Source: a virus (taxonomy: Duplodnaviria; Heunggongvirae; Uroviricota; Caudoviricetes). From it: 21,071 nucleotides of DNA. The stretch lies in the IMG/VR virus record IMGVR_UViG_2740892258_000010. The stretch is one strand, 5' to 3'. The notes below the pieces were generated by a model. That model searched no databases. It was not told where the DNA came from and saw only the letters and a program-made list of their open reading frames with translations. Of this stretch, positions 2,473 through 21,071 are shown piece by piece. Both the position numbers and the translations under genes were made by a program. The first letter of the stretch is position 1. Each line of letters opens with the position of its first letter.

Positions 2473-2655
2473 TCAGTACGCTACGGCAAATGTCATTGAC
2501 GTTTTTGGAAACTGCTGTCTGACTTTTTTGATTTCAGAATTAGCCTGACGGGCAATGCTGCGAAGGGCGTTTTCTTGCTGAGGTGTCACTGAACAAGCCC
2601 CATGTCGGCAAGCATAAGCACACAGAATATGAAGCCCGCTGCCAGAAAAATGCAT
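2473..2655 (-). CDS. Lambda-type small early protein (orf61 equivalent)
   Basis: 60-aa ORF at the position and orientation of the lambda orf61/orf63/orf60a cluster upstream of exo. Identity by recollection and synteny. Confidence 0.5.
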   Translation of the reverse strand: MHFSGSGLHILCAYACRHGACSVTPQQENALRSIARQANSEIKKVRQQFPKTSMTFAVAY

Positions 2656-2665
2656 TCAGTGGTTG

Positions 2666-2857
2666 TCATACCTGGTCTCTCTCATCTGCTTCTGCTTTCG
2701 CCACCATCATTTCCAGCTTTTGTGAAAGGGATGTGGCTAACGTATGAAATTCTTCGTCTGTTTCTGCTGGTATTGGCACAAACCTGACTCCAATTTGAGC
2801 AAGGCTATGTGCCAAATCAATACTCGTTCTTAACTCAACAGGAGATGCTTTGTGCAT
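2666..2857 (-). CDS. Lambda-type small early protein (orf63 equivalent)
   Basis: 63-aa ORF ([26 protein letters not shown]...) in the lambda orf63 position. Overlaps the next ORF as in lambda. Confidence 0.55.
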   Translation of the reverse strand: MHKASPVELRTSIDLAHSLAQIGVRFVPIPAETDEEFHTLATSLSQKLEMMVAKAEADERDQV

Positions 2858-3012
2858 ACCGCCCCCCGTTTATTATTTATCTCCTCAGCCAGCCGCTGGG
2901 CTTTCAGCGGATTTCGGATAACAGAAAGACCGTGAAATACCCAGCCTCGCTTTGTAACGGAGTAGACGAAAGTGATCGCGCCTACCCGGATATTATCGTG
3001 AGGATGGGTCAT
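2830..3012 (-). CDS. Lambda-type small early protein (orf60a equivalent)
   Basis: ORF track gives 62 aa (2830..3018); the start at the second Met gives 60 aa ([11 protein letters not shown]...). Lies immediately upstream of exo. Confidence 0.55.
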
Positions 3013-3689
3013 CGCCATTGCTCTCCAAATACAAAACCAATTTCAGCCAGTGCTTCGTCCATTTTTTCGATGAACTCCGGCACCATCTCGTCAAAACTCG
3101 CCATGTACTTTTCATCCCGCTCAACCACGACATAATGCAGGCCTTCACGCTTCATTCGTGGGTCATAGTTGGCAAAGTACCAGGCATCTTTTCGTGTCAC
3201 CCACATGCTGTACTGCACCTGGGCCATGTAAGCCGACTTTATGGCCTCGAAACCACCGAGCCGGAACTTCATGAAATCCCGGGAGGTAAACGGGCATTTC
3301 AGCTCAAGGCCATTGCCGTCACTGCATAAACCATCGGGAGAGCAGGCGGTGCGCATACTTTCGTCGCGATAGATGATCGGGGATTCAGTAACATTCACGC
3401 CGGAAGTGAATTCAAACAGGGTTCTGGCGTCGTTCTCGTACTGTTTTCCCCACGCCAGCGCCTTAGCATTAACTTCCGGAGCCACACCGGTGCAAACCTC
3501 AGCCAGCAGGGTGTGGAAGTAGGACATTTTCATGTCAGGCCACTTCTTTCCTGAGCGGGGCTTTGCTATCACGTTGTGAACTTCTGAAGCGGTGATGACG
3601 CCGAGCCGTAATTTGTGCCATGCATCATCCCCCTGTTCGACAGCTCTCACGTCGATCCCGGTACGCTGCAGGATAATGTCCGGTGTCAT
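3009..3689 (-). CDS. exo: Lambda exonuclease (Red-alpha)
   Basis: 226-aa translation matches lambda Exo essentially end to end ([40 protein letters not shown]...GFVFGEQWR). 4-nt overlap with bet. Confidence 0.95.
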
Positions 3690-4471
3690 GCTGCCACCTT
3701 CTGCTCAGTGGCTTTCTGTTTCAGGAATCCAAGAGCTTTCACTGCTTCGGCCTGTGTCAGTTCTGACGATGCGCGAATGTCGCGGCGAAATATCTGGGAA
3801 CAGAGCGGCAATAAGTCGTCATCCCATGTTTTGTCCAGGGCAATCAGCAGAGTGTTAATCTCCTGCATGGTTTCATCGTTAACCGGAGTGATGTCGCGTT
3901 CCGGCTGACGTTCTGCAGTGTATGCGGTATTTTCGACAATGCGCTCGGCTTCATCCTTGTCATAGATACCAGCAAATCCGAAGGCCAGACGGGCACACTG
4001 AATCATGGCTTTATGCCGTAACATCCGTTTGGGATGCGACTGCCACGGCCCCGTGATTTCTCTGCCTTCGCGGGTTTTGAATGGTTCGCGGCGGCATTCA
4101 TCCATCCACTCGGTAACGCAGATCGGATGATTGCGGTCTTTGCGGTAAATCCGGCATGTACATGATTCATTGTCCTGCTCAAAGTCCATACCATCAAACT
4201 GCTGGTTTTCATTGATGATGCGGGACCAGCCATCAACGCCCACCACCGGAACAATGCCGTTCTGCTTATCAGGGAAGGCGTAAATTTCTTTCGTCCACGG
4301 ATTAAGGCCGTACTGGTTGGCGACGATCAACAATGCGATGAACTGCGCATCGCTGGCATCACCTTTAAATGCCGTCTGGCGAAGAGTGGTGATCAGTTCC
4401 TGTGGGTCGACAGAATCCATGCCGACACGTTCAGCCAGCTTCCCTGCCAGCGTTGCGAGTGCTGTACTCAT
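3686..4471 (-). CDS. bet: Recombination protein Bet (Red-beta)
   Basis: 261-aa translation matches lambda Bet ([66 protein letters not shown]...). Confidence 0.95.
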
Positions 4472-4476
4472 CCGTT

Positions 4477-4773
4477 TTATACCTCTGAATCAATATCAGC
4501 CTGATGGTGAGCAATGGTTTCAACTATGTACCGGATGTGTTCTGCCATGCGCTCCTGAAACTCAACATCGTCATCAAACGCACGGGTAATGGCTTTTTTG
4601 CTGGCCCCGTGGCGTTGTAAATGATCGATGCATAGCGATTCAAACAGGTGCTGGGGCAGGCCTTTTTCCATGTCGTCTGCCAGTTCTGCCTCTTTCTCTT
4701 CACGGGCGATCTGCTGGTAGTGACGCGCCCAGCTCTGAGCCTCAAGACGATCCTGAATGTAATAAGCGTTCAT
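4477..4773 (-). CDS. gam: Gam, RecBCD inhibitor (98-aa short form only)
   Basis: 98-aa ORF matches the lambda Gam core ([21 protein letters not shown]...DIDSEV). The upstream ATG that gives the 138-aa form in lambda ([10 protein letters not shown]...) is at 4892-4894 but is out of frame with the core here. Confidence 0.9.
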
Positions 4774-4848
4774 GGCTGAACTCCTGAAAATGGCTGTGAA
4801 AATATCGCCCGCGAAATGCCAGGCTGATTAGGAAAACAGGAAAGGGGG

Positions 4849-4992
4849 TTAGTGAATGCTTTTGCTTGATCTCAGTTTCAGTATTAATATCCATTTTTTA
4901 TAAGCGTCGACGGCCTCACGAAACATCTTTTCATCGCCAATAAAAGTGGCGATAGTGAATTTAGTCTGGATAGCCATAATTGTTTGATCCAT
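4849..4992 (-). CDS. kil: Kil (host-killing/FtsZ-inhibiting protein)
   Basis: Last 47 codons of the 89-aa ORF 4849..5118 read [47 protein letters not shown], which is lambda Kil with one substitution. Start taken at this Met. Confidence 0.85.
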
Positions 4993-5125
4993 TTTTTGGG
5001 ACTCCTGGCTGATTAAGTATGTCGATAAGGCGTTTCCATCCGTCACGTAATTTACGGGTGATTCGTTCAAGTAAAGATTCGGAAGGGCAGCCAGCAACAG
5101 GCCACCCTGCAATGGCATATTGCAT
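4961..5125 (-). CDS. cIII: CIII (FtsH inhibitor, stabiliser of CII)
   Basis: Not in the ORF track (54 aa). Manual translation gives [54 protein letters not shown], matching lambda CIII. 3' end overlaps the kil start as in lambda. Confidence 0.85.
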   Translation of the reverse strand: MQYAIAGWPVAGCPSESLLERITRKLRDGWKRLIDILNQPGVPKNGSNNYGYPD

Positions 5126-5197
5126 GGTGTGCTCCTTATTTATACATAACGAAAAACGCCTCGAGTGAAGCGTAATTGGTATGCGGTAACGCCGCGC

Positions 5198-5566
5198 TCA
5201 GGCGGCCTTGATAGTCATATCATCTGAATCAAATATTCCTGATGTATCGATATCGGTAATTCTTATTCCTTCACTACCATCCATTGGAGGCCATCCTTCC
5301 TGACCATTTCCATCATTCCAGTCGAACTCACACACAACACCATATGCATTTAAGTCGCTTGAAATTGCTATAAGCAGAGCATGTTGCGCCAGCATGATTA
5401 ATACAGCATTTAATACAGAGCCGTGTTTATTGAGTCGGTATTCAGAGTCTGACCAGAAATTATTAATCTGGTGAAGTTTTTCCTCTGTCATTACGTCATG
5501 GTCAATTTCAATTTCTATTGATGCTTTCCAGTCGTAATCAATGATGTATTTTTTGATGTTTGACAT
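5198..5566 (-). CDS. ea10: Ea10-like early protein
   Basis: 122-aa ORF between cIII and ral, the position of lambda ea10. Identity by synteny and recollection. Confidence 0.6.
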   Translation of the reverse strand: MSNIKKYIIDYDWKASIEIEIDHDVMTEEKLHQINNFWSDSEYRLNKHGSVLNAVLIMLAQHALLIAISSDLNAYGVVCEFDWNDGNGQEGWPPMDGSEGIRITDIDTSGIFDSDDMTIKAA

Positions 5567-5586
5567 CTATTCATATCCTCATAGAT

Positions 5587-5612
5587 AAAAAATCGCCCTC
5601 ACACTGGAGGGC
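5587..5612 (-). terminator. Intrinsic terminator between ral and ea10 (leftward transcript)
   Basis: On the minus strand: GCCCTC-cagtgt-GAGGGC stem-loop (plus coordinates 5595-5612) followed by a T6 run (plus-strand A-run 5587-5592). Confidence 0.6.
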
Positions 5613-5748
5613 AAAGAAGATTTCCAATAATCAGAACAAGTCGGCTCCTGTTTAGTTACGAGCGACATTGCTCCGTGTATTCACTCGTTGGAATGAATAC
5701 ACAGTGCAGTGTTTATTCTGTTATTTATGCCAAAAATAAAGGCCACTA

Positions 5749-5949
5749 TCAGGCAGCTTTGTTGTTCTGTTTACCAAGTTCTCTGGCAATCATTGCCGTC
5801 GTTCGTATTGCCCATTTATCGACATATTTCCCATCTTCCATTACAGGAAACATTTCTTCAGGCTTAACCATGCATTCCGATTGCAGCTTGCATCCATTGC
5901 ATCGTTTGAATTGTCCACACCATTGATTTGTATCAATAGTCGTAGTCAT
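5749..5949 (-). CDS. ral: Ral, restriction-alleviation protein
   Basis: 66-aa translation (MTTTIDTNQWCGQFKRCNGCKLQSECMVKPEEMFPVMEDGKYVDKWAIRTTAMIARELGKQNNKAA) matches lambda Ral. Confidence 0.9.
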   Translation of the reverse strand: MTTTIDTNQWCGQFKRCNGCKLQSECMVKPEEMFPVMEDGKYVDKWAIRTTAMIARELGKQNNKAA

Positions 5950-6019
5950 ACGGATAGTCCTGGTATTGTTCCATCACATCTTGAGGATGCTCTTCGAACT
6001 CTTCAAATTCTTCTTCCAT
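5933..6019 (-). CDS. Small acidic protein, lambda orf28 equivalent
   Basis: Not in the ORF track. Manual translation gives MEEEFEEFEEHPQDVMEQYQDYPYDYDY (28 aa). Overlaps the ral start by 17 nt. Confidence 0.55.
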   Translation of the reverse strand: MEEEFEEFEEHPQDVMEQYQDYPYDYDY

Positions 6020-6162
6020 ATATCACCTTAAATAGTGGATTGCGGTAGTAAAGATTGTGCCTGTCTTTTAACCACATCAGGCTCGGTGGTTCTCGTGTAC
6101 CCCTACAACGAGAAATCGGATAAACTCTATTCACCCCTACAGAGAGCAAAAGAGAAACGCCG

Positions 6163-6744
6163 ATGAACAACTCATGGTGGCAGGAACTAATGCATTTTTT
6201 CCTGCAAGGAATGACACTTAAACAGTTGATTCATATGCTAATCATCCTGATCATATTGATTATTGTTATGCCGGTAAGCGTAAAAGAATGGATAAACCTG
6301 CATAATCCAGAAATCCTTCCTCATTACTGGATGTATTACATCCTGTTGTTTTGCGTTAGCTATGTGCTTAACGGCGTTGTTAATTCCGCTTATCACGCTG
6401 TGACTGAAAGAATTGAGGTATTCGCTGCTCAGAAGCGCAAATCTAAAGAAGAAAAATATGTGCAAGATTTGTTTGATTCGTTAACTCTTGGAGAAAGAGC
6501 GTATTTGGCATTCGCTGTAGCCGCTAATAACCAGCTACAAACGGAAAAGGGCGCTCATGAATCAATTTCATTGCTCAAAAAAGGACTCCTCGTTCGAAGG
6601 CCTCCTGCTGTTGGATATCCTGATACCGACCGTTTCGTTATCCCTGAAAGCTATAGACATGAGTGCTACATTAGGTTTGCCGGGAAGGCAGACAGCCTTA
6701 TGGATGAACTTATCGCTCAGGATAAGCATGGCAAAAACAAGTAA
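6163..6744 (+). CDS. sieB: Superinfection exclusion protein B
   Basis: 193-aa ORF with a hydrophobic N-terminal region (MLIILIILIIVMPV..., YILLFCVSYVLNGVV...). Matches lambda SieB by recollection. Convergent with N. Confidence 0.85.
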   Translation: MNNSWWQELMHFFLQGMTLKQLIHMLIILIILIIVMPVSVKEWINLHNPEILPHYWMYYILLFCVSYVLNGVVNSAYHAVTERIEVFAAQKRKSKEEKYVQDLFDSLTLGERAYLAFAVAANNQLQTEKGAHESISLLKKGLLVRRPPAVGYPDTDRFVIPESYRHECYIRFAGKADSLMDELIAQDKHGKNK

Positions 6745-13810: not shown

Positions 13811-14635
13811 GGCCGCCACACCAACTGTGCCGCCGCCACCGATCCGAAACACGAATTTAATTACCAGCAGGCGGTTGAGCGCCTTCCTGGTGAAGATCCG
13901 GCTCAGCTGAACGACCCGGCCTACCGTCGTCTGCGTATCATTACCGATAACCTCAAACAGGAAGAGCACGCCATTGTCCAGGTGGAAGAAATGCAGGCGG
14001 TGAATGCCGTGCTGTATGGCAAATACACCATGGAAGGGGATCAGTTTGATACTGTCGAGGTGGATTTCGGGCGCTCTGAAGGAAATAACATTGAGCAGGC
14101 TGACGGTAAAAAATGGTCTGAGCAGGACCGTGATACGTTTGATCCGACGCATGATATTGACCTCTACTGCGATCAGGCCAGCGGCCTTGTGAATATCGCC
14201 ATTATGGACGGTACGGTCTGGCGTCTGCTGAATGGCTTTAAGCTGTTCCGCGAAAAACTGGATACCCGTCGCGGCTCAAATTCACAACTCGAAACGGCAG
14301 TGAAAGATCTGGGCGCAGTGGTGTCCTTCAAGGGGTATTACGGCGATCTGGCCATTGTGGTGGCGAAAACGTCTTATATAGCAGAAGACGGTATCGAAAA
14401 ACGTTATCTTCCAGATGGCATGCTGGTTCTGGGGAATACTGCTGCAGATGGGATCCGTTGTTACGGTGCCATTCAGGATGCTCAGGCGTTGTCCGAAGGT
14501 GTGGTGGCCTCTTCCCGTTATCCGAAACACTGGCTGACGGTAGGGGATCCCGCCCGTGAATTTACCATGACGCAGTCCGCGCCGCTGATGGTGTTGCCGG
14601 ACCCGGATGAGTTTGTGGTGGTACAGGTGAAATAA
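13811..14635 (+). pseudogene. E: Major capsid protein E, 3' fragment (5'-truncated)
   Basis: Open frame from the stop at 13808-13810 to 14635 matches the lambda E C-terminal region (...AYRRLRIITDN..VEEMQAVNAVLYGKYTM...LTVGDPAREFTMTQSAPLM...). There is no N-terminal region and no ATG; the first candidate start is a GTG at 13982. Confidence 0.8.
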
Positions 14636-14644
14636 TCCGTGAGC

Positions 14645-14672
14645 GGGGGCGAAATGCCCCCGTGTCTTTTTT
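14645..14672 (+). terminator. Intrinsic terminator downstream of E
   Basis: GGGGGC-gaaat-GCCCCC stem-loop followed by GTGTCTTTTTT. Confidence 0.6.
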
Positions 14673-14686
14673 CACAGGGGGCTGAT

Positions 14687-15061
14687 ATGGCAACGAAAGA
14701 GCAAAATCTGAAACGGCTTGATGAACTGGCCCTGATTCTGGGGCGTGAGCCGGATATATCCGGGAGTGCCGCAGAGATAGCGCAGCGGGTGGCAGAATGG
14801 GAAGAGGAAATGCAGTCATCCGGCGATGATGTACAGGTTATGAATATGGATATCCGGGAGCGGGAAACCGCGGCTCATGATGTTCGTGAGGAAACATCCG
14901 GCGCGTTAACGCGCATCAGAGTTCTGACCTGCCTCCATCTCTGTGGCGTTGATGGTGAAACGGGGGAATCCGTTGAGCTTGCGGATGTTGGTCGGGTGAT
15001 TCTGATTATGTCCTCAGATGCAAAAACACACGTTGATGGTGGAATGGCTGTTTATGCGTGA
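14687..15061 (+). CDS. FI-position head/DNA-packaging protein (non-lambda allele)
   Basis: 124-aa acidic protein (MATKEQNLKRLDELALILGRE...) between E and FII, with an AGGGGG ribosome-binding site. Assigned by synteny. Stop overlaps the FII start. Confidence 0.55.
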   Translation: MATKEQNLKRLDELALILGREPDISGSAAEIAQRVAEWEEEMQSSGDDVQVMNMDIRERETAAHDVREETSGALTRIRVLTCLHLCGVDGETGESVELADVGRVILIMSSDAKTHVDGGMAVYA

Positions 15062-15407
15062 TTTTCAGAATGCCTTTGATGCCGCCCTTGCCGGGGTGGA
15101 CAGTACGATTGTTGAAGTGATGGGCATCAGTGCGCAGTTCACCTCCGGTGCACAGCGTGGCGGCGAGGTTCATGGCGTTTTTGACGATCCGGAGTCGCTG
15201 GGTTTTGCCAGTAGTGGGATCCGTATTGAAGGAAGTAACCCGTCATTATTTGTGCTTACGGATACGGTTTGTGCTGTACGGCGTGGTGACACGCTGACCA
15301 TTAACGGCGAGATGTTCTGGGTGGACCGTGTTTCTCCGGATGACGGAGGGAGTTGTTATCTCTGGCTCAACCGGGGGCAACCACCTGCCGCCAGCCGTCG
15401 CCGCTGA
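15054..15407 (+). CDS. FII: Head-tail joining protein FII
   Basis: 117-aa protein from MRDFQNAFDAALAG... to ...WVDRVSPDDGGSCYLWLNRGQPPAASRRR, matching lambda FII. Confidence 0.85.
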   Translation: MRDFQNAFDAALAGVDSTIVEVMGISAQFTSGAQRGGEVHGVFDDPESLGFASSGIRIEGSNPSLFVLTDTVCAVRRGDTLTINGEMFWVDRVSPDDGGSCYLWLNRGQPPAASRRR

Positions 15408-15418
15408 AAGGGGGATGT

Positions 15419-15694
15419 ATGGCCATAAAAGGTCTTGAGCAGGCCGTTGAAAACCTCAGCCGTATCAGCAAAACGGCAGTGCCTGGTGCCGCCGCAATGG
15501 CCATTAACCGCGTTGCTTCATCCGCGATATCGCAGTCGGCGTCACTGGTTGCCCGTGAGACAAAGGTACGCCGGAAACTGGTAAAGGAAAGGGCCAGGCT
15601 GAAAAGGGCCCGTGGTGGCTGGTCTGCCGGGGGGCGATTCATAAGTTCCGCTGTGTGCCGCATCTCACCGGGCGGCGCTTTGAGCACGGGGTGA
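15419..15694 (+). pseudogene. Z: Tail protein Z, truncated after about 64 codons and fused out of frame to K
   Basis: MAIKGLEQAVENLSRISKTAVPGAAAMAINRVASSAISQSASLVARETKVRRKLVKERARLKRA matches the lambda Z N-terminus. After 15610 the frame reads through K-derived DNA out of frame to a stop. Confidence 0.75.
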
Positions 15695-16101
15695 CGGACT
15701 GTTACACGCTGTTCCGGGACGCTTACCATCTGGCGGGGATTGAGATGCCGGACTTTCATCGTGAGGATGACTGGTGGCGTAACGGCCAGAATCTCTATCT
15801 TGATAATCTGGAGGCCACAGGGCTGTATCAGGTGCCGTTGTCAGCGGCGCAGCCGGGCGATGTGCTGCTGTGCTGCTTTGGTTCATCGGTGCCGAATCAT
15901 GCCGCTATTTACTGTGGTGACGGCGAGCTGCTGCACCATATTCCTGAACAACTGAGTAAACGAGAGAGGTATACCGACAAAGAGAGGTATACCGACAAAT
16001 GGCAGCGACGCACACACTCCCTCTGGCGTCACCGGGCATGGCGCGCATCTGCCTTTACGGGGATTTACAACGATTTGGCCGCCGCATCGACCTTCGTGTG
16101 A
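15610..16101 (+). pseudogene. K: Tail assembly protein K, 3' half only (NlpC/P60-like region)
   Basis: Frame matches the lambda K C-terminal half (PWWLVCRG.IHKFRCVPHLTGRRFEHGVTDCYTLFRDAYHLAGIEMPDF...). No N-terminal half or start codon; first in-frame GTG is at 15655. Contains an extra in-frame 18-bp repeat. Confidence 0.7.
15963..15998. repeat. Perfect 18-bp tandem duplication (agagaggtataccgacaa x2)
   Basis: Direct reading. Adds ERYTDK in the K frame and duplicates the GAGAGG ribosome-binding site immediately upstream of the gene I start codon (15999). Confidence 0.85.
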
Positions 16102-16670
16102 AAACGGGGGCTGAAGCCATCCGCGCACTGGCCACACAGCTCCCGGTGTTTCGTCAGAAACTGAGCGACGGCTGGTATCAGGTACGGATTGCCGGGCGGG
16201 ACGTCAGCACGTCCGGGTTAACGGCGCAGTTACATGAGACTCTGCCTGATGGCGCTGTGATTCATATTGTTCCCAGAGTCGCCGGGGCCAAGTCAGGTGG
16301 CGTATTCCAGATTGTCCTGGGGGCTGCCGCCATTGCCGGATCATTCTTTACCGCCGGAGCCACCCTTGCAGCATGGGGGGCAGCCATTGGGGCCGGTGGT
16401 ATGACCGGCATCCTGTTTTCTCTCGGTGCCAGTATGGTGCTCGGTGGTGTGGCGCAGATGCTGGCACCGAAAGCCAGAACTCCCCGTACACAGACAACGG
16501 ATAACGGCAAACAGAACACCTATTTCTCCTCACTGGATAACATGGTTGCCCAGGGCAATGTTCTGCCGGTTCTGTACGGTGAAATGCGCGTGGGGTCACG
16601 CGTGGTTTCTCAGGAGATCAGCACGGCAGACGAAGGGGATGGTGGTCAGGTTGTGGTGATTGGTCGCTGA
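15999..16670 (+). CDS. I: Tail assembly protein I
   Basis: 223-aa ORF (MAATHTLPLASPGMARICLYGDLQRFGRRIDLRVKTGAEAIRA...) matching lambda I. Start lies inside the K 3' end. Confidence 0.9.
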   Translation: MAATHTLPLASPGMARICLYGDLQRFGRRIDLRVKTGAEAIRALATQLPVFRQKLSDGWYQVRIAGRDVSTSGLTAQLHETLPDGAVIHIVPRVAGAKSGGVFQIVLGAAAIAGSFFTAGATLAAWGAAIGAGGMTGILFSLGASMVLGGVAQMLAPKARTPRTQTTDNGKQNTYFSSLDNMVAQGNVLPVLYGEMRVGSRVVSQEISTADEGDGGQVVVIGR

Positions 16671-16678
16671 TGCAAAAT

Positions 16679-16790
16679 GTTTTATGTGAAACCGCCTCCG
16701 GGCGGTTTTATCGTTTATGGAGCATGACGAATGGGTTTTATGTGAAACCGCCTCCGGGCGGTTTTATCGTTTATGGAGCATGACGAATGG
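16679..16790. repeat. Perfect 56-bp tandem duplication spanning the I-J intergenic hairpin and the J start
   Basis: 16679-16734 and 16735-16790 are identical. Each copy carries the AAACCGCC-tccg-GGCGGTTTT hairpin and ATGGGT. The first ATG opens only a 4-codon ORF; the second is the J start. Confidence 0.9.
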
Positions 16791-18677
16791 GTAAAGGCAG
16801 CAGTAAGGGGCATACCCCGCGCGAAGCGAAGGACAACCTGAAATCCACGCAGCTGCTGAGTGTGATTGATGCCATCAGCGAAGGGCCGGTTGAAGGTCCG
16901 GTGGATGGATTAAAAAGCGTGCTGCTGAACAGTACGCCGGTGCTGGACAGTGAGGGGAATACTATAACCCGCAGACGCGGCAATACAGCGGTATCTGGGA
17001 CGGAACGTTTAAGCCAGCATACAGCAACAACATGGCCTGGTGTCTGTGGGATATGCTGACCCATCCGCGCTACGGCATGGGGAAACGTCTTGGTGCGGCT
17101 ATGTCATCGGCCAGAATTGCGACCAGTCGGTGCCGGATGGCTTTGGTGGCACGGAACCGCGTATCACCTGTAATGCCTGGCTGACCACGCAGCGCAAGGC
17201 GTGGGATGTGCTCAGTGATTTCTGCTCGGCGATGCGCTGTATGCCGGTATGGAACGGGCAGACGCTGGGGCGCACTTTGACGGCGACCAGAGCGGCACGG
17301 TGAATGGTGTCACGCCGCCAGCGGTGCAGCACCTGACTGCCGAAGTCACCGCAGACAGCGGGGAATATCAGGTGCTGGCGCGCTGGGACACGCCGAAGGT
17401 GGTGAAGGGGGTGAGCTTTATGCTTCGCCTGACCGTGGCAGCGGATGACGGCAGTGAGCGGCTGGTCAGCACGGCCCGGACGACGGAAACCACATACCGC
17501 TTCATGTACTGGATAGCCGCCAGTATCAATATCAAACCGGGCCATGATTATTATTTTTACATCCGCAGTGTGAACACCGTTGGCAAATCGGCATTTGTGG
17601 AGGCTGTTGGCCAGCCGAGTGATGATGCATCCGGCTATCTGAATTTTTTCAAAGGAGAGATAGGGAAAACCCATCTGGCTCAGGAGTTGTGGACGCAGAT
17701 TGATAACGGTCAGCTTGCGCCTGACCTGGCTGAAATCAGGACGTCCATTACGGGTGTCAGCAATGAAATCACGCAGACCGTCAATAAGAAACTGGAAGAC
17801 CAGAGTGCAGCGATCCAGCAGATACAGAAGGTTCAGGTTGATACAAATAATAACCTGAACAGCATGTGGGCTGAAGCTGCAGCAGATGCAGGACGGACGC
17901 CTTTATATCGCGGGTATTGGTGCCGGTGTTGAGAATACTCCTGACGGTATGCAGAGTCAGGTGCTGCTGGCGGCGGACAGGATTGCGATGATTAATCCTG
18001 CGAATGGCAACACAAAGCCGATGTTTGTTGGGCAGGGCGATCAGATATTCATGAACGAAGTGTTCCTGAAATATCTGACGGCTCCCACCATTACCAGCGG
18101 TGGCAATCCCCCAACGTTTTCACTGACACCTGATGGTCGACTTTCTGCGAAAAATGCGGATATCAGCGGTAACGTGAACGCGAACTCCGGGACGCTCAAC
18201 AACGTCACGATTAATCAGAACTGTCGGATTCTGGGAAAACTGTCAGCTAACCAGATTGAAGGTGATATTGTCAAAACGGTGGGAAAAGCCTTTCCGAGAA
18301 ATGGCAGTTATGCCAGCGGTACAATAACGGTCACTGTGTACGATGACCAGGCTTTTGACCGTCAGATAGTAGTCCCCCCCGTTCTGTTTCGTGGGGGTAA
18401 GCATGAAAACTTCAACAGCAACAACCAACAGTCATACTGGTATTCAACCTGTAAGCTGCAGGTACTGAAGAACGGACAGGAAATCTTTCAGCAACCCGCG
18501 ACGGATGTCAGCAGGGTATTTTCATCAGTCATTGATATGCCTGCCGGACACGGCCATGTCACCCTGACTTTCAATGTTTCTTCATATGGTGCTAATAACT
18601 GGACGCCAACGACCAGTATCAGCGACCTTCTTGTTGTTGTGATGAAGAAATCTACAGCCGGTATCAGTATCAGTTGA
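16787..18677 (+). pseudogene. J: Central tail fibre / host-specificity protein J, broken into four ORFs
   Basis: Successive ORFs 16787..17059, 17040..17303, 17249..17932 and 17886..18677 all carry lambda-J-like segments in different frames, with large internal segments missing relative to lambda J (1132 aa). The C-terminal about 260 aa differ from the lambda LamB-binding end. Confidence 0.8.
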
Positions 18678-18696
18678 ATTTTATAACCCAGATACG

Positions 18697-18722
18697 GGCG
18701 CCAGAAATGGCGCCTTTTTTAT
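18697..18722 (+). terminator. Intrinsic terminator between J and stf
   Basis: GGCGCC-agaaat-GGCGCC stem-loop followed by TTTTTTATTT. Confidence 0.6.
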
Positions 18723-18735
18723 TTGTGGAGTGAAT

Positions 18736-20796
18736 ATGGCAGTACAGATTTCAGGCGTGCTGAAAGACGGTGCAGGAAAACCGATACAGAACTGCACCAT
18801 TCAGCTCAAAGCAAAACGTAACAGCACCACGGTTGTGGTGAACACGGTGGCCTCAGAAAATCCGGATGAAGCCGGACGTTACAGCATGGATGTCGAGTAT
18901 GGCCAGTACAGCGTTATCCTGCTGGTTGAAGGTTTTCCGCCTTCACATGCCGGGGCCATCACCGTGTATGAGGATTCTAAGCCGGGGACATTGAATGATT
19001 TTCTGGGCGCTGCAACAGAAGATGATGTTCGTCCGGAGGCACTGTATCGTTTTGAAAAGATGGTGGAAGAGGTGGCACGCAACGCTGAAGCCGCCTCTCA
19101 GAGCGCAGCGGCAGCAAAGAAATCAGAAACAGCAGCGGCATCGTCCAGGAATGCGGCGAAAACATCAGAGACGAATGCAGGTAACAGCGCGAAAGCGGCA
19201 GCTTCTTCAAAAACAGCCGCACAAAACGCAGCAACAGCGGCAGAACGTTCAGAGACAAATGCCCGTGCGTCAGAAGAAGCCTCCGCAGACAGTGAAGAGG
19301 CTTCCCGCCGTAATGCAGAGTCAGCCGCTGAAAATGCCGGAGTCGCCACCACAAAAGCGCGGGAGGCCGCAGCAGACGCAACAAAGGCCGGGCAGAAAAA
19401 GGATGAGGCTCTGTCGGCAGCGACACGGGCTGAAAAGGCGGCAGACCGCGCAGAAGTCGCAGCGGAAGTGACTGCAGAGCCCTATGCGAATATAGTGCCG
19501 CCGCTGCCTGATGTGTGGATACCGTTTAACGATTCACTGGATATGATTGCGGGTTTTTCTCCGGGCTATAAAAAAATAGCTATTGGTGACGATGTGGTTC
19601 AGGTCGCCAGTGATAAACAGGTTAATTTCAGTCGCGCATCAACGGCAACATATATCAACAAATCTGGCGAACTGAAAACGGCGGAAATTAATGAGCCGCG
19701 ATTTGAGTGTGATGGCCTGCTTATTGAGGGACAAAGAACGAACTACATGCTCAATTCGGAAAGTCCAGCCAGCTGGGGGAAGTCATCAAACATGGATGTG
19801 CCCGAAACCGGGACAGATAGTTTTGGTTTTACTTATGGAAAGTTTGTCTGCAACGATTCTCTGGTTGGGCAAACTTCGGCTATTAATATGGCATCAATTG
19901 CTGCAACAAAGTCAGTTGATGTCTCAGGCGATAACAAGTACGTGACAACCTCATGCCGTTTTAAAACAGAACGACAGGTAAGGTTACGTATACGGTTTGA
20001 TAAGTATGATGGTAGTGCAACAACTTTTCTTGGCGATGCGTACATTGATACGCAAACGCTTGAAATTAATATGACAGGTGGGGCTGCCGGCAGAATTACG
20101 GCACGAGTCAGGAAGGATAAGACCACAGGCTGGATTTTTGCAGAGGCAACGATTCAGGCAATTGATGGTGAGTTAAAAATAGGCTCTCAGATACAGTATT
20201 CTCCTGAGCGGGGTGGGGCAACAGTATCTGGTGACTATATTTATCTTGCCACCCCACAAGTAGAGAATGGGCCGTGTGTATCATCATTTATTATTTCAGG
20301 AGGCAGCGCAACGACAAGAGCCAGTGATTTGGTTAGTATCCCCACCAGAAATAATCTTTATAAGTTACCATTTACTTTTTTACTTGAGATTCATAAAAAC
20401 TGGGATATTGCACCAAACGCCGCACCCCGCGTGTGGGATATAGCAGCAGCCAATACCGGGCAATCAGCAATTGCAGCAATCAACAGAGGTAGTGGTAAGT
20501 TATATATGAGTCTGTCAAACCCTTCAGGCTTGTATGTTAATAGCGCAGCGACAGATGTATTTGCAGAGAAAACCACATTTGGATGTATTGCAAAAGCTGA
20601 TGGTCACTTTCATGTGGTGACAAATGGTAAAGCGGTTAATGAAGTTTATTGTGAATATAATGGTGTGACCGCTGATAAAAATATCCGATTTGGAGGGCAG
20701 ACGAATACTGGAGAACGACATCTGTTTGGCCATATTCGCAATTTCCGCATATGGCATAAAGAATTAAATGACAGGCAATTAAAAGAGGTCGTATGA
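18736..20796 (+). CDS. stf: Side tail fibre protein: lambda-Stf-like N-terminus, Ala-rich shaft, distinct C-terminal putative receptor-binding domain
   Basis: Start at ATG 18736 with GGAG upstream; the ORF track starts at GTG 18730. The first ~120 aa match lambda Stf (MAVQISGVLKDGAGKPIQNCTIQLKAKRNSTTVVVNTV...). The C-terminal ~400 aa are AT-richer and end in a LamG/ConA-like-looking signature (FGHIRNFRIWHKELNDRQLKEV). Confidence 0.8.
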   Translation: MAVQISGVLKDGAGKPIQNCTIQLKAKRNSTTVVVNTVASENPDEAGRYSMDVEYGQYSVILLVEGFPPSHAGAITVYEDSKPGTLNDFLGAATEDDVRPEALYRFEKMVEEVARNAEAASQSAAAAKKSETAAASSRNAAKTSETNAGNSAKAAASSKTAAQNAATAAERSETNARASEEASADSEEASRRNAESAAENAGVATTKAREAAADATKAGQKKDEALSAATRAEKAADRAEVAAEVTAEPYANIVPPLPDVWIPFNDSLDMIAGFSPGYKKIAIGDDVVQVASDKQVNFSRASTATYINKSGELKTAEINEPRFECDGLLIEGQRTNYMLNSESPASWGKSSNMDVPETGTDSFGFTYGKFVCNDSLVGQTSAINMASIAATKSVDVSGDNKYVTTSCRFKTERQVRLRIRFDKYDGSATTFLGDAYIDTQTLEINMTGGAAGRITARVRKDKTTGWIFAEATIQAIDGELKIGSQIQYSPERGGATVSGDYIYLATPQVENGPCVSSFIISGGSATTRASDLVSIPTRNNLYKLPFTFLLEIHKNWDIAPNAAPRVWDIAAANTGQSAIAAINRGSGKLYMSLSNPSGLYVNSAATDVFAEKTTFGCIAKADGHFHVVTNGKAVNEVYCEYNGVTADKNIRFGGQTNTGERHLFGHIRNFRIWHKELNDRQLKEVV

Positions 20797-21071
20797 AAGA
20801 TTTAACTTTGAAGTTTCATGACAAACTGCAGTTTAAGGCCTTCCTGTCATCTCTTGACTGGGAGGAGGATGAAGACCTCCAGAATAAACTGTTAGTCGAT
20901 GAAATTGGTTTCACCTACACAGAAACAGGGGTAACAGAAGAGGGAGAACCTGTCTGTGTCCGGAATGACGGTTATTTTGTCAACATTCGCATTCTTGATG
21001 ACTTGTTTGATGTTTCTGTATTCTCTGATTATGTCGTGGAGCTGGAAACACCGCTTCGGGAATGGAGCTGA
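20793..21071 (+). CDS. Hypothetical acidic protein downstream of stf (possible fibre accessory/chaperone; not lambda Tfa)
   Basis: 92-aa ORF whose ATG overlaps the stf stop (ATGA). The stop codon is the last three bases of the window. No similarity to lambda Tfa recognised. Confidence 0.4.
   Translation: MKDLTLKFHDKLQFKAFLSSLDWEEDEDLQNKLLVDEIGFTYTETGVTEEGEPVCVRNDGYFVNIRILDDLFDVSVFSDYVVELETPLREWS

Follow-up and report, generated by a model that had tools for sequence, protein, structure and literature searches.

A lectin-headed side tail fibre and its co-inherited 92-residue partner in a phage 21-type prophage

The last two genes of a 21,071-nucleotide (nt) tailed-phage sequence (IMG/VR record IMGVR_UViG_2740892258_000010; hereafter the window, with all features on its + strand) are stf, which encodes a side tail fibre of 686 amino acids (aa), and a small gene encoding an acidic 92-aa protein. 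Both proved to be phage 21 genes: they show 0 nucleotide differences (100% identity) from CPT_21_22 and CPT_21_23, which the GenBank record of phage 21 (OL657228) lists as 'side tail fiber' and 'hypothetical protein', respectively. We consider it reasonably probable that phage 21 carries a modular fibre with a lectin-like head and that the 92-aa protein is an obligate partner of this head, acting either as an assembly factor or as a bound subunit. Both genes were already in GenBank as those of phage 21; NCBIfam already names the lectin-like head class, and the BASEL and RBPseg papers describe it. The picture of the fibre itself changes little, and what deserves attention is its small partner. 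This protein is strictly co-inherited with a receptor-binding module that is widespread and occurs in several phage families used for therapy. Anyone who wants to engineer these heads and their distal fibres, to swap them, or to express the heads as glycan probes would need to know if it acts as a chaperone or as a connector, and phage 21 and the BASEL phages are tractable for such work.

Coupling and co-inheritance of the 92-aa gene and the fibre head

The start codon of the 92-aa gene (20793-21071) overlaps the stop codon of stf in the sequence ATGA, and its Shine-Dalgarno sequence, AAGAGG, lies inside the end of stf (20783-20788), at the position where a ribosome-binding site (RBS) is annotated in phage 21. 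A first-pass annotation of the window, made from its letters alone, had described this gene as translationally coupled, acidic and unlike lambda Tfa, and each of these points held. In addition to the overlap and the Shine-Dalgarno sequence, we found that the protein has a pI of 4.1, with 22 Asp and Glu residues versus 8 Lys and Arg residues, and is cytoplasmic, and a BLASTP comparison with lambda Tfa returned nothing at E<=100. The protein matches PHROG 1361, a family with no function assigned, over residues 1-91/92 (E 8e-42), while no family in Pfam or NCBIfam was matched. AlphaFold2 (AF2) modelled it as a small alpha+beta fold with a predicted local distance difference test (pLDDT) score of 89.7, and no solved fold matched this model. 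Its C-terminal tail (residues 84-92, PLREW plus one residue) is kept in the 92-93-aa forms of prophages, T1-like phages and T5-like phages, diverges in the rV5-like homolog and has the lowest confidence in the model (pLDDT 64). A docking peptide that engages a partner could show such a pattern.

The small gene and the fibre head, a C-terminal cassette described below, were found together whichever of the two was used to select loci. The small-protein profile selected 85 loci, and in all 82 that have upstream DNA the gene stands directly after a fibre open reading frame (ORF) that aligns to the full 437-aa head, with an overlap of 4 nt in all but two. Conversely, every head-selected locus with room downstream (78/78) carries the small gene at a 1- or 4-nt overlap. 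Counted together (82 + 78), nearly all 160 related loci whose upstream sequence is available show one of these two overlaps. By the first-pass annotation's own standard, its reading would have fallen had the 92-aa ORF been absent or non-conserved in related loci; it was present in all 78. The pair of head and small gene occurs in lambdoid, T1-like, T5-like, Nonagvirus/Seuratvirus (Queuovirinae), Dhillonvirus and rV5-like phages, the last of which encode a 110-aa PHROG 1361 homolog (E 5e-26) at the stop codon of a 1479-aa fibre gene. Based on this pattern of co-occurrence, we read the small protein as a putative obligate partner of the lectin head.

The small-protein family has 78 representatives among 1.84 billion clustered proteins, and a scan of one genome per species, which used exact peptide patterns and thus has little power for distant relatives, returned three loci only, in Escherichia ruysiae and in one misbinned metagenome-assembled genome (MAG). 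The family probably extends beyond Enterobacteria, as judged by the T5-like Aeromonas phage AhP_Mru1 (L093 4613-4972), in which an ORF of 104-119 aa overlaps the end of a head that is 26% identical. The end of this ORF, ...GYHANVRTTD...VVVETPQYVWA, parallels DGYFVNIRILD...VVELETPLREWS of the 92-aa protein; its profile score is E >10, and the annotation of this record is heavily fragmented. Fibre, small-gene or distal-fibre sequences of coliphage type also appear in records labelled 'Campylobacter phage' or 'Listeria phage' (H59, H119, H120 and H170-H172), some of which are 100% identical to T5-like coliphages, and this suggests that these records are contaminated or mis-assigned.

Selection on the small gene and its possible roles

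In most lineages, the head and the small gene are the first two parts of a three-gene cassette. A second fibre gene (245-586 aa) begins 9-12 nt after the small gene in IrisVonRoten, L6jm, SA126VB, JenP1, tunus and rolling, and the distal fibres of these phages have a common N-terminus, M-[VAT]-T-x-T-x-I-P-x-D-I-[TK]-x-L-[KQ]. A distal fibre with this conserved peptide was present in 8 loci of the first set and in 56 of the 80 tip-selected (that is, head-selected) prophage loci, while in 18 of the 80 a 97-aa protein with two transmembrane segments (PHROG 1443) takes its place. No phage without both the head and the small gene was found to have the N-terminal docking peptide in full length. An Escherichia ruysiae lambdoid prophage (L098) has the order stf - small gene - distal fibre - 97-aa membrane protein, and a short contig (L099) has the small gene, the distal fibre and the start of the 97-aa membrane protein gene. 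The layout of phage 21 and the window is that of L098 and L099 minus the distal fibre: in the phage 21 and NU14 loci, which are identical to the window, the 97-aa membrane protein stands where the distal fibre would be, and neither the window nor the first 27.5 kb of the phage 21 record contains a gene with the docking motif.

Three further observations concern these loci. The L098 region (2602-6668) encodes a lambda-type Stf with a lectin head, the small protein, a distal fibre of 346 aa that has an S74 chaperone, and the membrane protein; a gene for a Pin-like invertase comes next, on the opposite strand. L099 is a 2.8-kb contig that was binned as a Collinsella MAG and is almost certainly a mis-binned fragment of an Escherichia phage. 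The conserved 97-aa membrane protein lies outside the window (phage 21 CPT_21_24, L004 6292-6585; L098 6360-6668), and in most lambdoid prophage loci examined it stands between the fibre cassette and the sitDCBA moron, with or without a distal fibre.

The cassette raises the question of whether the 92-aa protein serves the distal fibre alone, as an adaptor, and is thus a functionless leftover in phage 21 and the window. The frequency of the distal fibre would fit this, as a fibre with the docking peptide follows the small gene not only in the 56 prophage loci but also in the T5-like, T1-like, Nonagvirus/Seuratvirus and Dhillonvirus phages examined, and, going by L098 and L099, removing the third gene from a full cassette yields the phage 21 layout. 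Selection on the small gene, which is purifying, speaks against it. The ratio of nonsynonymous to synonymous substitution rates (dN/dS) was 0.41 among 32 alleles from loci with a distal fibre, and it was no higher in two clades without one (0.32 for 12 alleles of a phage 21-like clade; 0.42 for 7 alleles of a second clade), although the pairs compared are not independent and the gene is short. Between the two fibre-less clades, which differ at nearly all synonymous sites and are thus saturated, the small protein is still 64% identical, and every fibre-less locus retains a small ORF of the full family length (92 aa). The rV5-like phages likewise retain a homolog though no distal fibre gene follows it. 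Because dN/dS is equal with and without the distal fibre, the constraint on the small gene does not depend on the distal fibre, which speaks against a relic adaptor in phage 21 and favours a function connected with the lectin-headed fibre itself. We therefore regard a role restricted to the distal fibre as unlikely.

A role tied to the head could be that of a chaperone. The 92-aa protein would then be a purely non-structural assembly factor of the head, similar to Tfa, gp38 or gp57A or substituting in trans for an S74 domain, that is absent from the virion and plays no part in holding a second fibre. A gene directly downstream of a fibre gene with overlapping start and stop codons is the classic layout of fibre chaperones, and a small, acidic, cytoplasmic product suits the task. 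Moreover, the proximal fibre has no S74 intramolecular chaperone, while distal fibres do (a Peptidase_S74 domain was found in tunus_83 as Pfam PF13884 and in the L098 distal fibre by its C-terminal sequence), and equal constraint on the small gene with and without the distal fibre is what a head chaperone would predict. Other evidence does not fit. The protein has no sequence or fold similarity to known fibre chaperones (Tfa/Caudo_TAP PF02413, Mu gpU and T4 gp38), and ConA-like domains, including the homologous head spike fibre Rcc01080 of a gene transfer agent (GTA), fold without a helper. Chaperones of the Tfa/gp38 type usually co-vary with the variable tip, but the 92-aa protein shows no such co-variation. 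The small gene also lies between a proximal and a distal fibre gene, as do the genes of structural connectors in T4, where gp35 and gp36 are encoded between fibre genes. On balance, a pure chaperone is a serious possibility, but one that we hold to be less likely than not.

We thus favour the broader reading in which the 92-aa protein is an obligate partner of the head that may either assist its assembly or stay bound to it. Through the ATGA overlap, synthesis of this acidic, cytoplasmic protein would keep pace with that of the fibre. It would then bind the head stoichiometrically at conserved sites, whether to aid assembly or stability or to remain in place as a subunit. That it does not track the variable head regions points to contact with conserved surfaces, and on this ground we infer that the small protein and the head touch. 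Covariation of the small protein with the extreme C-terminus of the fibre was considered as a test of contact and rejected, since the two regions are adjacent on the DNA and such covariation is explained by linkage.

Several points weigh against this reading, in addition to the limits of the dN/dS comparison. The small protein is 91-96% identical among alleles whose heads drop to 43% identity, so that there is no co-variation with the variable, presumably receptor-binding part. Domain 2 of the head (pLDDT <65) and residues 251-336 (pLDDT <35) are poorly modelled from a shallow alignment. The head homologs of RcapMu and of one cyanophage have no detectable small gene, and recombinant Rcc01080 produced in E. 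coli without such a partner bound cells (PMC10218006). Because Rcc01080 bound without a partner and the RcapMu and cyanophage homologs come without the small gene, the first domain of the head does not strictly depend on the small protein.

The three-gene form suggests a more specific role. There, the head and the small protein may jointly form the attachment point for a distal fibre that begins with M-V-T-K-T-V-I-P-x-D-I-T-K-L-K, and phage 21 and the window carry a two-gene form without this fibre. Taken further, the small protein might found an undescribed class of fibre accessory proteins that resemble neither Tfa nor intramolecular chaperones, a head-bound universal socket for the MVTKTVIPxDITKLK plug of exchangeable distal fibres, with phage 21 as a socket without a plug. 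We put this forward tentatively and do not expect it to be the likelier outcome. If true, it would describe a plug-and-play branching system common to at least six coliphage lineages.

Architecture of the fibre and its head

The stf gene (18736-20796; PHROG 1419 'tail protein', 1102 bits) can be read from a GTG at 18730, which gives 688 aa, or from an ATG at 18736, which gives 686 aa; the ATG is preceded by GGAG and is the start annotated in phage 21. As the first-pass annotation had proposed, the N-terminus is lambda-like. Residues 1-131 (18736-19128) form a lambda-type Stf attachment domain (PF08400, 230 bits against a gathering threshold (GA) of 26.6), residues 1-94 match the Ur-lambda Stf chain in PDB 9e7m (E 1e-49), and residues 1-158 are 74% identical to lambda orf-401, with similarity gone beyond about residue 240. 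An Ala/Ser/Glu-rich shaft (residues ~105-250; 19048-19485) shows low-complexity similarity to the lambda Stf shaft and is probably a coiled coil. Over this part of the gene the GC content is 0.57-0.58 (19100-19550), and it drops to 0.39-0.45 at 19550-21049; part of this contrast arises because the Ala-rich shaft is rich in GCN codons. The distal part had been described as about 400 residues that are AT-richer and unrelated to lambda. Its composition and its lack of lambda similarity held up, while its size is closer to 430 residues (251-686). The window Stf has no gp37-like C-terminal tip of the lambda Stf type, and no tfa gene is present.

This distal part is a self-contained cassette of ~430 aa, and the first-pass description of stf as chimeric was correct: the same head is fused to unrelated N-termini. 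In prophages these are PF08400, PF12571 and PF03406, and the head also stands on T1-like, T5-like (LtfA-type), Nonagvirus/Seuratvirus, Dhillonvirus and rV5-like fibres. The head cassette is horizontally mobile. Alignments of all lineages begin at residues 251-336 (19486-19743; PLPDVWIPFNDSLDM...RASTATYINKSG...EPRFE..GLLIEGQRTN), a stretch that scored a pLDDT of <35 in an AF2 monomer model of the head; this model, built from a shallow alignment, has a mean pLDDT of 60 and is only partly usable.

The first head domain (residues 329-529; 19720-20322) is a GTA head-spike-fibre domain. It matches the NCBIfam family NF048003 ('phage head spike fiber domain') with 55.3 bits against a curated cut-off of 36, and the RcGTA head spike fibre Rcc01080 can be aligned over residues 297-543 (E 1e-9; a match to the sequence of PDB 6TB9). 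The fold of this domain is a ConA-like jelly-roll beta-sandwich. For the second domain (residues 560-681; 20413-20778), a LamG-like fold is plausible: it matches Pfam PF13385 (Laminin_G_3) with 23.9-25.1 bits, below the GA of 27.6 (E 2e-5 to 5e-5), and the same family was matched at E<=1e-3, likewise below threshold, in 10 of 20 homologs. The AF2 model of this domain is all-beta, with a pLDDT of only 45-63, and a PDB profile search with the head alignment found no LamG structure matching it. The domain ends in a strand motif, FGHIRNFRIWHKELNDRQL (residues 664-682; 20725-20781), that is near-invariant across lineages and is the best-conserved stretch of the C-terminal domain across all alleles, with the consensus RHLFGH(I/V)RN(F/L)R(I/L)W..L.D.Q in lambdoid, T1-like, T5-like and rV5-like alleles. 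We take this strand to resemble the usual end of LamG-type domains. The first-pass annotation had likened this motif to the signature of LamG/ConA-like jelly rolls, and this claim stood in part, as the motif is present and the fold is supported for domain 1, while for domain 2, with its sub-threshold match, it is plausible.

A sliding identity profile of nine alleles revealed conserved blocks at residues 260-330, at 511-570 and over the last ~35 residues, with an exchangeable middle at 331-510. In the core of domain 2 (residues 571-660; 20446-20715), identity was 6-40% in every comparison, even where alleles are ~96% identical in domain 1. This hypervariability makes residues 571-660 a candidate specificity determinant, and together with the allelic mosaic it would fit the tracking of a changing receptor.

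By homology to Rcc01080 and by its fold, the head is most likely a binder of surface glycans. The lambda-type N-terminal domain would plug into the tail tip, with the Ala-rich shaft next and a head of two beta-sandwiches from about residue 251, and this head would reversibly bind a surface glycan (O-antigen, capsule or lipopolysaccharide (LPS)) as a primary receptor, with its variable loops setting specificity. Published work describes heads and fibres of this kind. Rcc01080 is a single flexible subunit of which only the first ten residues were resolved, and it binds the Rhodobacter capsule in assays with fluorescent fusions (PMC7296036, PMC10218006); the C-terminus of IrisVonRoten Gp22 was called a 'galectin-like domain' and a possible extra receptor-binding domain (BASEL 2025, PMC11990801); RBPseg describes lectin-like beta-sandwich heads on coiled-coil fibres; and for T5-like and related siphoviruses, the common view is that O-antigen serves the lateral fibres as a facultative first receptor (PMC8594841). 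A search of the literature for the small protein, phage 21 Stf, virion proteomics or cryo-electron microscopy of the lectin-headed tip found nothing specific. Alternatively, the head could be an enzyme with a ConA-like fold, a glycan depolymerase or lyase whose activity would be held in check in the producing cell by the 92-aa protein as an inhibitor or immunity partner. We think this very unlikely, because the homologous Rcc01080 binds capsule with no cleavage reported, and Stf matched no catalytic family in Pfam or NCBIfam.

Prophage context and comparison with known systems

A phage 21-type (Jouyvirus) prophage is integrated at icd, and the locus forms the right end of its late operon. The window's last base is the stop codon of the 92-aa gene, so the downstream context is visible only in related loci, where the gene order is J - stf - 92-aa gene - 97-aa membrane protein - sitDCBA - icd' (truncated icd). 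In NU14 and ATCC 11775, a 2.37-kb stretch with these genes ends a complete lambdoid prophage in which the order J-stf is intact. This stretch was found at >=80% coverage in 575 of 5426 complete E. coli genomes (~10%), and 308 records carry it at >=99% identity. RefSeq/PGAP splits the intact 686-aa stf ORF in NU14 (L001 20037-22097) and ATCC 11775 (L002 20037-20400) into an N-terminal-domain 'pseudogene, missing C-terminus' and a 574-aa 'phage head spike fiber domain-containing protein' that starts at an internal codon, or leaves the remainder unannotated. The stf DNA of both strains equals that of the window, and the reading frame is open throughout despite this split.

The window derives by deletion from a complete lambdoid prophage of the NU14/ATCC 11775 type. 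Relative to phage 21, the genes from terminase through part of the capsid gene are gone, as are Z through L, and J is in four pieces. Window 13844-15610 corresponds to phage 21 6590-8356 and window 15610-16736 to phage 21 14590-15698. The structural module (13844-18677) is a deletion patchwork, with part of the capsid gene through FII joined straight to K-I; the four collinear J remnants correspond to phage 21 15641-15868, 16435-16763, 17496-17733 and 18001 onward, and a 58-bp stretch is duplicated at the first junction. A J remnant ends at 18677, directly upstream of stf, and between the two lies a terminator-like hairpin (18696-18715; GGGCGCCAGAAATGGCGCC followed by a T-run), at the place where a terminator is annotated in phage 21. 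Scans of 18000-21071 for Rfam families, tandem repeats and promoters turned up only this J-stf terminator. The first-pass annotation had called the prophage decayed and had taken the intactness of stf and the 92-aa gene as a hint of retention under selection. The deletions and the fragmented J bear out the decay, but the second suggestion was not upheld: with zero substitutions relative to phage 21, point decay has not had time to set in, so that the two ORFs being intact is uninformative about selection.

Phage 21 (OL657228) itself is the nearest known system. The position of stf and the small gene after J and the layout of RBS and terminator are those of the window, and the two genes themselves are the same, whereas the window lacks most head and tail genes and its J is fragmented. 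Lambda Stf/Tfa resembles the window in its N-terminal domain and, like T4 gp37/gp38, Mu S/U and P2 H/G, in having a fibre gene followed by a coupled small gene.

Rcc01080 (NF048003; PDB 6TB9 sequence) shares homology with Stf over residues 297-543; it is rich in beta structure, lectin-like and a binder of capsular polysaccharide. It differs in setting, as it sits on capsid vertices as a single subunit held by a 10-residue N-terminal peptide anchor while Stf is a tail fibre, and the alignment stops at Stf residue 543, before domain 2; only Rcc01080 residues 2-10 were experimentally resolved. No neighbouring small partner gene was reported for it in PMC10218006.

The branched lateral fibres of DT57C (LtfA/LtfB) and phiEco32 (gp14/gp15) resemble the three-gene cassette in that a proximal fibre carries a second one through the conserved N-terminus of the latter (PMC4728585). 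However, DT57C has neither a small gene in between nor a lectin head. In its fibre, the match to the distal-fibre N-terminus is confined to residues 27-45 (a generic motif) and does not include MVTKTVIPxDITKLK, and the window for its part has no second fibre. In the T5-like phage IrisVonRoten (Bas32), and in its relatives with the same lateral fibre locus (L6jm, AKFV33 and FFH_1), the likeness extends to head and partner: in Gp22-Gp23-Gp24 of IrisVonRoten, identity is 52% across the whole head and 49% for the small protein, and the two genes again overlap by 4 nt. There, the head stands on a T5 LtfA-type N-terminus with an LtfC collar, and the small gene is followed by that of a 574-aa T-shaped distal fibre, whereas phage 21 and the window have the head and its partner without a distal fibre.

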